Shown here piece by piece: positions 7,987 to 9,948 of a DNA stretch of 23,535 bases. The DNA is from a virus (Duplodnaviria; Heunggongvirae; Uroviricota; Caudoviricetes). Each line of letters opens with the position of its first letter. Within the stretch, counting starts at the first letter, position 1. A program made the position numbers and the translations under genes. Below the pieces are notes generated by a model. That model was given only the letters and a program-made list of their open reading frames with translations, was not told the DNA's origin and searched no databases. The stretch is taken from the IMG/VR virus record IMGVR_UViG_2859799533_000003, positions 1-23,535 of that record; one strand, 5' to 3'.

Positions 7987-9948
7987 ATGGCATTTAAACA
8001 CTATGACGTGGTCAGGGCGGCGTCGCCGTCAGACCTTGCGGAGCGACTGACACAAAAACTGAAGGAGGGGTGGCAGCCATTTGGCAGTCCGGTGGCCATC
8101 ACGCCTTATACCCTGATGCAGGCCATTGCGGCGGAAGGTGATGTCACCACACCTGTGGTGGTGAAGCCGTCGGATGGAGAAGGCGCAGTTATCAGCACCA
8201 CCAGCAACCCGGAGTATTAATTTGTTGTTGCCCTGGCCGGGCAGTCAAACGGTATGGCGTATGGTGAAGGGCTTCCGCTGCCGGAGACATATGACCGTCC
8301 GGACCCGCGTATTAAACAGCTGGCGCGTCGCAGCACTGTCACGCCGGGTGGTGCGTCCTGTAACTACAATGACATTATTCCTGCGGACCACTGCCTGCAT
8401 GATGTTCAGGATTTGAGTAAGTTTTCACACCCGAAAGCCAGCGCAGCTCAGTATGGATGCGTGGGGCAGGGATTACATATCGCGAAGAAATTGTTGCCGT
8501 TTATTCCGGCGAATGCCGGTATTCTTCTGGTTCCGTGCTGCCGTGGTGGTTCTGCATTTTTGGCGGGCGATGAAGGTACCTTCAGCGAATCCACCGGCGC
8601 AAGCGAGACCTCGGCACGCTGGGGTGTAGATAAGCCACTGTACAAGGACCTGCTTACCCGTACTCAGGCCGCACTGAAGGCTAACCCTAAAAATATTCTG
8701 CTTGCAGTGGTCTGGATGCAGGGCGAGTTTGATTTGAAACAGGGTGCATACGCCACTCAGCCGGGGCTGTTTGATTCCATGGTGGAAAAATATCGTTCTG
8801 ACCTGTCGGAATTCGGAGGTCAGTGTCTCGGGGGCTCTCCGTCATCGGTTCCCTGGATTTGTGGCGACACGACCTACTACTGGAAGCAGACTTATTCTTC
8901 GCAATACGATGCGGTGTATGGTGCATACAAGACGAAATCCGCAAAAAAAATCTTCTTTGTGCCGTTTATGACGGATGAAAACGGGCGAAATGTGGGTACC
9001 AACGAGCCGTCAGAAGATCCGGATGTTGCGGATATTGGGTATTACGGAGCCGGTGGTCGAACGGACGCCAAAACCTGGACGACGGCCGACCGTAAAACGC
9101 ATTTTGGATCATGGGCACGTCGTGGGATTATTTCCGACCGTCTGGCAACGGCGATTCTTGTGCATGCCGGGAGAACCGCTGAATTCATTACCGGAAAACA
9201 GCCTGATACGGTGAAGCCCACCGGACCTTCCGGTGAAGGTACGGAGAGAGAGCCGGAAGCCCCGGTCAGTAACCGAACCCTGATGAGTCTGCTGGCGTCC
9301 GGCGAAGACCTGGCATCACAGGGCTGGCGCTATTATCACAAACCGGCGAGTGGAGACAATGTTAACAAAAACATTGCTGAAGCGGTGGTCAGTGATGCGG
9401 GGGCTACGGGAGGTAAGGCCCTGCAACTGAATAAACCGGAAAACCACATCTGGTTTCTGGAGCATGATGCAGCCGGACAGGGAGTGGAGTTACTGAAGAA
9501 GGGGGGACGTGTGAGCGTACAGTTTAAGTTGCCGGGTTCACTGGTGCCGAATCGGTTTGCCCTGGGCATTTACTGGCAGTTGTCGTCCCTGCCGGAGGGA
9601 GTGACGCTGGCAGAGGAAGGCAACGACATGCTGATGTCCTTCTTCCTGCAGACGGATGCGACGAACCTGAACGCGATGTACCACAAGAAGCCGAATGCGA
9701 AGCTGGATACGTTCGGGGTCTTTGATAACGGATGGCACACACTGGATTTTGAGTTTGCCGGAAACAACAGCATTCAGGTGACGCCGGTACTGGATGAGAA
9801 ACGGGGGACGCCGTTCACACTGGTGAAATCTCCGGCATCAGGGGCGGCGGACAAACTGCAACTGACAGGCATATCAAAGGCGGCGACATATACGCTGCTG
9901 ATTGCCAGTGTGAAGGTGGAAGTGAACAACGCGGATGCCGCGGCATGA
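7987..9948 (+). pseudogene. nanS-p: NanS-p-type prophage sialate O-acetylesterase (DUF1737 N-domain + SASA/GDSL-like esterase + C-terminal domain) with in-frame TAA at 8218-8220
   Basis: ORFs 7987-8220 and 8254-9948 share a frame and the frame is open from 8221 (FVVALAGQSNGMAYGEG: GQSN esterase motif lies between the stop and the first downstream ATG); position after the tRNA trio as in Stx phages. Confidence 0.6.

Follow-up and report, generated by a model that had tools for sequence, protein, structure and literature searches.

The nanS-p gene of a cryptic lambdoid prophage of Shigella boydii, which would specify a sialate 9-O-acetylesterase, has very probably been inactivated by a single TAC to TAA change at codon 78. 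The window analysed here, meaning the whole stretch of 23,535 nucleotides, carries this gene as two open reading frames, and both the sequence and the ORF list place the first between ATG 7987 and the TAA at 8218-8220 (77 aa) and the second between ATG 8254 and the TGA at 9946-9948 (564 aa). The starts of the two ORFs lie 267 nt (89 x 3) apart, so that they share a common frame with exactly one stop between them, and a preliminary description that had proposed this arrangement is borne out. Pfam assigns the 77-aa ORF to DUF1737 (PF08410, residues 3-50, E 3.7e-17) and the downstream frame to SASA (E 5e-9 when the 11 codons preceding ATG 8254 are included) and to DUF6645 (PF20350, E 1.3e-42). 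The 11 codons at 8221-8253 read FVVALAGQSNG, within which AGQSNG occupies 8236-8253, and no ATG, GTG or TTG occurs in frame from the TAA up to ATG 8254. The locus, which public annotation already lists as two CDSs, is best regarded as an unremarkable nonsense pseudogene, fixed in its lineage and lying in a Shigella prophage degraded by IS elements. Coordinates of the gene and its surroundings are collected in Table 1.

Table 1 Features of the split nanS-p locus and of the surrounding prophage, in window coordinates
Feature	Position	Strand	Basis or remark
Antiterminator Q gene	5178..5573	+	Pfam Phage_antitermQ, E 1.6e-52
Three prophage tRNA genes (CAT, TCG, TCT)	7235..7484	+	ARAGORN; Rfam tRNA
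sRNA STnc100, full-length match	7560-7764	+	Rfam RF02076, 142 bits, E 8.9e-32
Shine-Dalgarno GGGAGGA for native ATG 7987	7973..7979	+	anti-SD duplex -10.3 kcal/mol
nanS-p 5' fragment: 77 aa, DUF1737 and linker, ends at premature TAA	7987..8220	+	Pfam
Premature ochre codon, Tyr78 to stop, C-to-A at 8220	8218..8220	+	intact alleles TAC
Eleven orphaned codons FVVALAGQSNG, SGNH block I; Gln86 8242-8244, Ser87 8245-8247	8221..8253	+	3PT5 alignment
nanS-p 3' fragment: 564 aa, rest of SASA/SGNH (His372 kept), linker, C-terminal lectin-like DUF6645	8254..9948	+	Pfam, PDB
DUF1378 gene cut to 44 aa by first IS of the block	10084..10218	+	Pfam DUF1378 positions 1-44 of 59
IS3-family orfB	10259-11077	-	transposase identification
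IS110-family transposase	11232-12407		
IS66-family set	12699-15088	-	
Second IS3-family element of the block	about 15500-16713		orfB 15823-16713
ALIL pseudoknot, orfA/orfB junction of the IS with orfB 15823-16713	15781-15897	+	Rfam RF01497, 120 bits

A fundamental question is whether the stop belongs to the design of the gene or is a lesion in it. A megablast search with positions 7900-10000 against 5,426 complete E. coli genomes returned 371 records in which a single match spans 80% or more of the query, and the best of these matches are 99.7-99.8% identical and carry one CDS of 1962 nt (653 aa) annotated as 'SASA family carbohydrate esterase'. Compared base by base with the best match (strain cM8a), the window shows 5 differences in 1962 nt and 0 indels, and codon 78 is TAC (Tyr) in cM8a and TAA in the window, a C-to-A change at 8220. 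Codon 78 is likewise TAC in FORC_069 and CE10, as it is in the intact alleles of loci L001, L002 and L003. Equal gene length together with TAC in the intact homologues therefore defines the lesion as a simple nonsense substitution in an otherwise full-length gene. The nucleotide identity is 99.7% to an intact 653-aa allele that is present in O104:H4 genomes (WP_000874454.1), and phage PhiR5_1 has an intact nanS-p gene of 662 aa. These single CDSs agree with the expectation in the preliminary description that the family is normally one polypeptide, and the alignment with full-length homologues that it had proposed as a check yields one in-frame TAA derived from TAC.

The position of the stop determines what any downstream product could contain. 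Read from codon 79, the downstream frame aligns with E. coli NanS (PDB 3PT5) at E 7e-115 over 313 residues, such that FVVALAGQSNG falls on YVLTVAGQSNA of NanS and GQSN on GQSN. Gln86, Ser87 and His372 of the present gene align with Gln18, Ser19 and His301 of NanS, the chain offset being 11 residues, and the C-terminal 185 residues match the C-terminal lectin-like domain of NanS-p (6YP6, E 2.6e-58). A passage of PMC9063846 that cites Rangarajan et al. 2011 gives the roles of the NanS residues as oxyanion residue for Gln18, nucleophile for Ser19 and catalytic His for His301. Since Met90, encoded by ATG 8254, comes after Ser87, any re-initiated product would be without both the nucleophile and Gln86; the earlier claims that the first downstream ATG follows the AGQSNG motif and that a re-initiated product would lack the catalytic Ser region are thus upheld, with the Ser codon at 8245-8247 and no earlier in-frame start. 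Loss of esterase activity is predicted because Ser87 has no start codon ahead of it. At the DNA level the locus retains DUF1737, a SASA/SGNH domain with the GQSN Ser and the catalytic His, the lectin-like jelly-roll domain DUF6645 and a position in the late region of a lambdoid prophage, all of which characterize NanS-p; what it does not have is an uninterrupted polypeptide of ~620-660 aa, and for this reason it is classed as a pseudogene of the NanS-p family and not as a functional member. Block I at 8251-8253 reads GQSNG in the window, as in the intact E. coli alleles closest to it, whereas NanS, the S. dysenteriae-type copies and the majority of other paralogues have GQSNA.

Could translation nevertheless pass the stop or resume usefully behind it? 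The anti-SD energy at ATG 7987 lies past the 5th percentile (-7.6 kcal/mol) of positions sampled across the window, and ATG 8254 has no Shine-Dalgarno sequence, its value of -3.6 kcal/mol being set against a window median of -3.1. No in-frame start would rescue Ser87, and the candidates that follow 8254 (TTG 8413 and GTG 8461) have SD energies at background. A UAA codon with U behind it terminates translation efficiently in E. coli. No stimulatory RNA structure was found around the stop, where a 131-nt fold scored z = +1.27 against shuffled sequences, and the window holds no ochre-suppressor tRNA, its three tRNAs as detected by ARAGORN and Rfam having the anticodons CAT, TCG and TCT. Programmed readthrough or recoding is therefore rejected, given the UAA-U stop, the lack of a structure and of a suppressor tRNA in the window, and the sense codon in the homologues. 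Ribosomes starting at ATG 7987 would be expected to terminate at UAA-U after 77 residues, so that DUF1737 and the linker alone would be released. Any 564-aa protein made by low-level re-initiation at ATG 8254 is predicted to be catalytically inactive, retaining only His372 and the carbohydrate-binding module.

Over 19,948 nt the window matches the Shigella boydii chromosome CP026866 (assembly GCA_002949955.1) at 100% identity, and the allele it carries is widely shared. Exact-sequence look-up places the 564-aa product in 123 contigs, where it is named 'sialate O-acetylesterase' or 'YjhS' of Shigella boydii, and the 77-aa product in 269 contigs, where it is named as a DUF1737 protein of S. dysenteriae and S. 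boydii. The TAA allele is found in complete genomes (CP026866, CP026797, CP026807 and others), in the NCTC assembly UAUR01 and in many drafts, and four IMG/VR contigs share the 31-mer that contains it. It was present at every S. boydii and S. dysenteriae locus fetched. Recurrence of the allele in many assemblies, complete and draft, shows the stop to be real and lineage-wide. The search of E. coli gave the opposite picture: a 41-mer centred on 8220 had zero matches in the 5,426 complete E. coli genomes in a megablast search in which any seed must span the mutant base, and the 81-mer at 8180-8260 matched 259 E. coli records, all in the 95-99% identity band and none exactly; among the 30 of these 259 records listed, each is 98.8% identical with one mismatch. 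Wild-card and exact TAA patterns had no match in the species-representative genomes, probably because no representative has the exact segment, and a homologue search with the 77-aa peptide returned mostly contig-end fragments, from which the frequency of native stand-alone relatives is not readable. Among the data searched, the Y78* allele is specific to S. boydii and S. dysenteriae.

The preliminary description had also asked whether homologues might naturally be two genes at exactly this point. Two-ORF copies with the same allele do occur across S. boydii and S. dysenteriae, apparently through descent or recombination, but the close E. coli homologues all have a sense codon. The shared two-ORF form therefore shows that the stop is real and lineage-fixed, and does not show that a two-gene form is the native architecture.

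The allele is not confined to one type of nanS-p. In S. dysenteriae the 77-aa ORF and TAA are found unchanged ahead of a second nanS-p type as well, which has a 542-aa downstream frame and only ~79% nucleotide identity to the window beyond roughly 8240-8290. Upstream of that point the two types are the same: neither the 350 nt ahead of the gene nor its first 250 nt differ from the window, and the identity breakpoint falls just past the stop. In the second-type copies of S. dysenteriae (L016, L019 and L020, locus coordinates 5001-6896) the 5' 234 nt including the TAA are identical to the window, and CP026807 holds both nanS-p types in one genome, in two prophages. The mosaic breakpoint is slightly different in L016 and L019, an observation consistent with repeated recombination among prophage copies. 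Presence of the same TAA in a ~79% identical paralogue points to spread via recombination, and the simplest reading would be that the TAA originated once and that lambdoid prophages resident in one host then exchanged it by homologous recombination. This single origin probably lies in the S. boydii / S. dysenteriae lineage, and the allele, once copied from prophage to prophage in this way, would now be in neutral drift alongside the rest of the prophage.

The prophage that surrounds the gene is itself extensively degraded. The nanS-p locus occupies its usual slot, after Q and the tRNA cluster and before DUF1378, and is syntenic with intact E. coli loci, in which the gene order after nanS-p is DUF1378, DUF826, holin, YdfR, lysozyme and Rz. 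In the window, an IS block at 10259-16713, with members of the IS3, IS110 and IS66 families, stands in place of the lysis cassette and of most packaging and head genes, and genes resume after it at a lambda E-type capsid gene. Holin, lysozyme, Rz, large terminase and portal genes are missing from the prophage in the window, and the tape-measure gene (21124-22488) is truncated by the right-hand of two inverted IS3-family copies (rve transposase) that bound the window at 1-662 and 22874-23535 and are 99.85% identical. Two further genes carry nonsense mutations. The DUF968/HNH gene (4180-5175, + strand) has Q214* through a C-to-T change at 4825 (stop 4825-4827), which splits it into ORFs of 215 aa and 110 aa, and the N6/N4 DNA methylase gene (6136-7185, + strand) has W105* through a G-to-A change at 6450 (stop 6448-6450), the 192-aa ORF at 6607-7185 being the C-terminal fragment only. 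At the sister S. boydii locus L004 both genes are intact, at 329 aa and 349 aa respectively, so that Q214* and W105* are strain-specific relative to that locus. The nanS-p copies show comparable wear, in that the TAA-bearing copy L014 has additional frameshifts. Since acquiring the TAA, the S. boydii copies have accumulated 5 nonsynonymous and 1 synonymous substitutions, against 4 and 5 among the intact E. coli alleles, counts that hint at relaxed constraint and are too few for a significant dN/dS contrast. Other E. coli and Shigella genomes often contain nanS-p copies that were broken independently, left as N-terminal fragments by a frameshift or an IS insertion, and Table 3 of Vimr 2013 already lists fragmented copies, with the entry '1 broken into 2 pieces of 108 aa and 513 aa' (PMC3658417).

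The preliminary description had placed this gene family next to stx, and in this respect it does not fit the locus: the window is without stx, and non-Stx lambdoid prophages often carry members of the family too. The 502 nt between the last tRNA and nanS-p hold an STnc100-like sRNA. This sRNA occupies the slot of stx in Stx phages, and terminator-like hairpins flank it (7499-7516 and 7734-7753).

Comparison with known systems places the locus among the prophage esterases of pathogenic E. coli. The NanS-p proteins encoded by prophages of O157:H7 and O104:H4 have Neu5,9Ac2 esterase activity, which enables lysogens to grow on mucin-derived O-acetylated sialic acid (PMC8065619). The present gene shares with these EHEC/EAHEC proteins (933W z1466/L0105, phi24B gp84 = vb_24B_21 and the O104:H4 alleles) the layout of DUF1737, SASA/SGNH and DUF6645 and the late-operon place after Q and tRNAs and before DUF1378 and the lysis genes; it differs from them in the TAA at codon 78, in having no stx upstream and in its host prophage, a non-inducible Shigella remnant. 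With chromosomal NanS (YjhS, PDB 3PT5) it shares a homologous catalytic domain, for which its DNA still encodes GQSN and the catalytic His, but NanS is single-domain, whereas the esterase in the window is flanked by DUF1737 and DUF6645 and its Ser block is separated from any start codon. The viable phage vB_EcoS-813R8 has a stand-alone DUF1737 gene of 67 aa (URE76691.1) between its Q and holin genes, and the window resembles it in encoding a short DUF1737-only product between Q and the lysis genes. In vB_EcoS-813R8, however, the esterase part is not in the genome, whereas in the window it follows in frame right behind the stop, and an esterase frame that continues past a point-mutation stop indicates a recent truncation and not a native small gene. 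The other broken nanS-p copies of E. coli and Shigella are likewise fragmented, but the type and position of their lesions differ from Y78*.

Two features of the locus may appear to speak against simple inactivation, namely that the 564-aa frame is open in most copies and that the 77-aa ORF is unchanged in many genomes. Both say little either way, because the genomes are very closely related. An alternative hypothesis is that Y78* has been kept and copied among Shigella prophages for a benefit, either removal of a disadvantageous esterase or release of a DUF1737 module like the cleaved fragment of phi24B gp84, and this hypothesis is considered unlikely. Were liberation of DUF1737 to be the true explanation, the stop would achieve by mutation what normally requires proteolysis, and the locus would tie in with the new proposal of DUF1737 as a capsid-decoration module. 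That proposal comes from a 2026 preprint, which describes the DUF1737 part of phi24B gp84 as a hexamer that decorates the capsid and is freed by cleavage after about residue 54-57; citing Pfam/InterPro, the preprint also states that ~2,528 of ~3,000 DUF1737 proteins are single-domain (10.64898/2026.04.10.717836).

Taken separately, a functional split, in which the stop is kept since a free 77-aa DUF1737 protein is useful, for example in capsid decoration, and the esterase is dispensable, is quite improbable. The 77-aa product would resemble the proteolytically released N-terminal domain of phi24B gp84, single-domain DUF1737 proteins are reported to be the majority and vB_EcoS-813R8 has one (10.64898/2026.04.10.717836 for the first two points), the ORF retains a strong Shine-Dalgarno sequence, and the TAA allele sits in two paralogues of one genome. 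However, this prophage could not build virions, having lost the terminase large subunit, portal and lysis genes and carrying an IS-truncated tape-measure gene, which leaves a capsid-decoration role without a substrate, and the element, with its lambda E-type capsid, tail tube and tape-measure genes, is siphovirus-like, whereas phi24B is a podovirus. Moreover, conservation of the 77 aa is explained by the close kinship of the genomes, and loci L014-L023 were themselves picked out through an exact match to the 77-aa peptide, which introduces an ascertainment bias. Since the prophage is without the genes to build or release virions, a retained function of the 77-aa product is unlikely.

A further hypothesis holds that loss of nanS-p was selected as a pathoadaptive gene loss of Shigella, and that selection, not drift, spread the allele. 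The same stop in two divergent paralogues and in two Shigella species would fit such a history, as would the differently truncated copy of S. sonnei (P0165). Prophage decay is general in Shigella, however, with nonsense mutations in two unrelated genes of this window and whole modules removed by IS elements, and many broken copies occur in E. coli too; the data here do not separate selection from drift combined with gene conversion, and adaptive loss is judged very improbable. A sequencing or assembly error that masks a sense codon, for which the one-base distance from the nearest E. coli alleles at the stop codon could be cited, is ruled out by recurrence of the identical allele in more than 100 independent assemblies, including complete genomes, the NCTC assembly and many drafts, and in the IMG/VR contigs.

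Inactivation of nanS-p by Y78* adds one more disabled accessory gene to the well-known decay of prophages and genomes in Shigella, and in itself matters little. Its practical consequence concerns annotation: although the 564-aa product is without the nucleophile, its database entries read 'sialate O-acetylesterase / YjhS', and the two CDSs ought to be marked as parts of a single pseudogene. For S. boydii / S. dysenteriae, Y78* might also be of use as a minor marker of lineage. Within the IS block, the segment at roughly 11155-12671, which contains the IS110-family element, is absent from loci L004 and L006 and present in L005, L018 and L022, and it appears to be a polymorphic insertion among S. 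boydii strains. Farther along the block, the ALIL element at the orfA/orfB junction belongs to a class of structures that stimulate programmed -1 frameshifting in IS3-family transposases.
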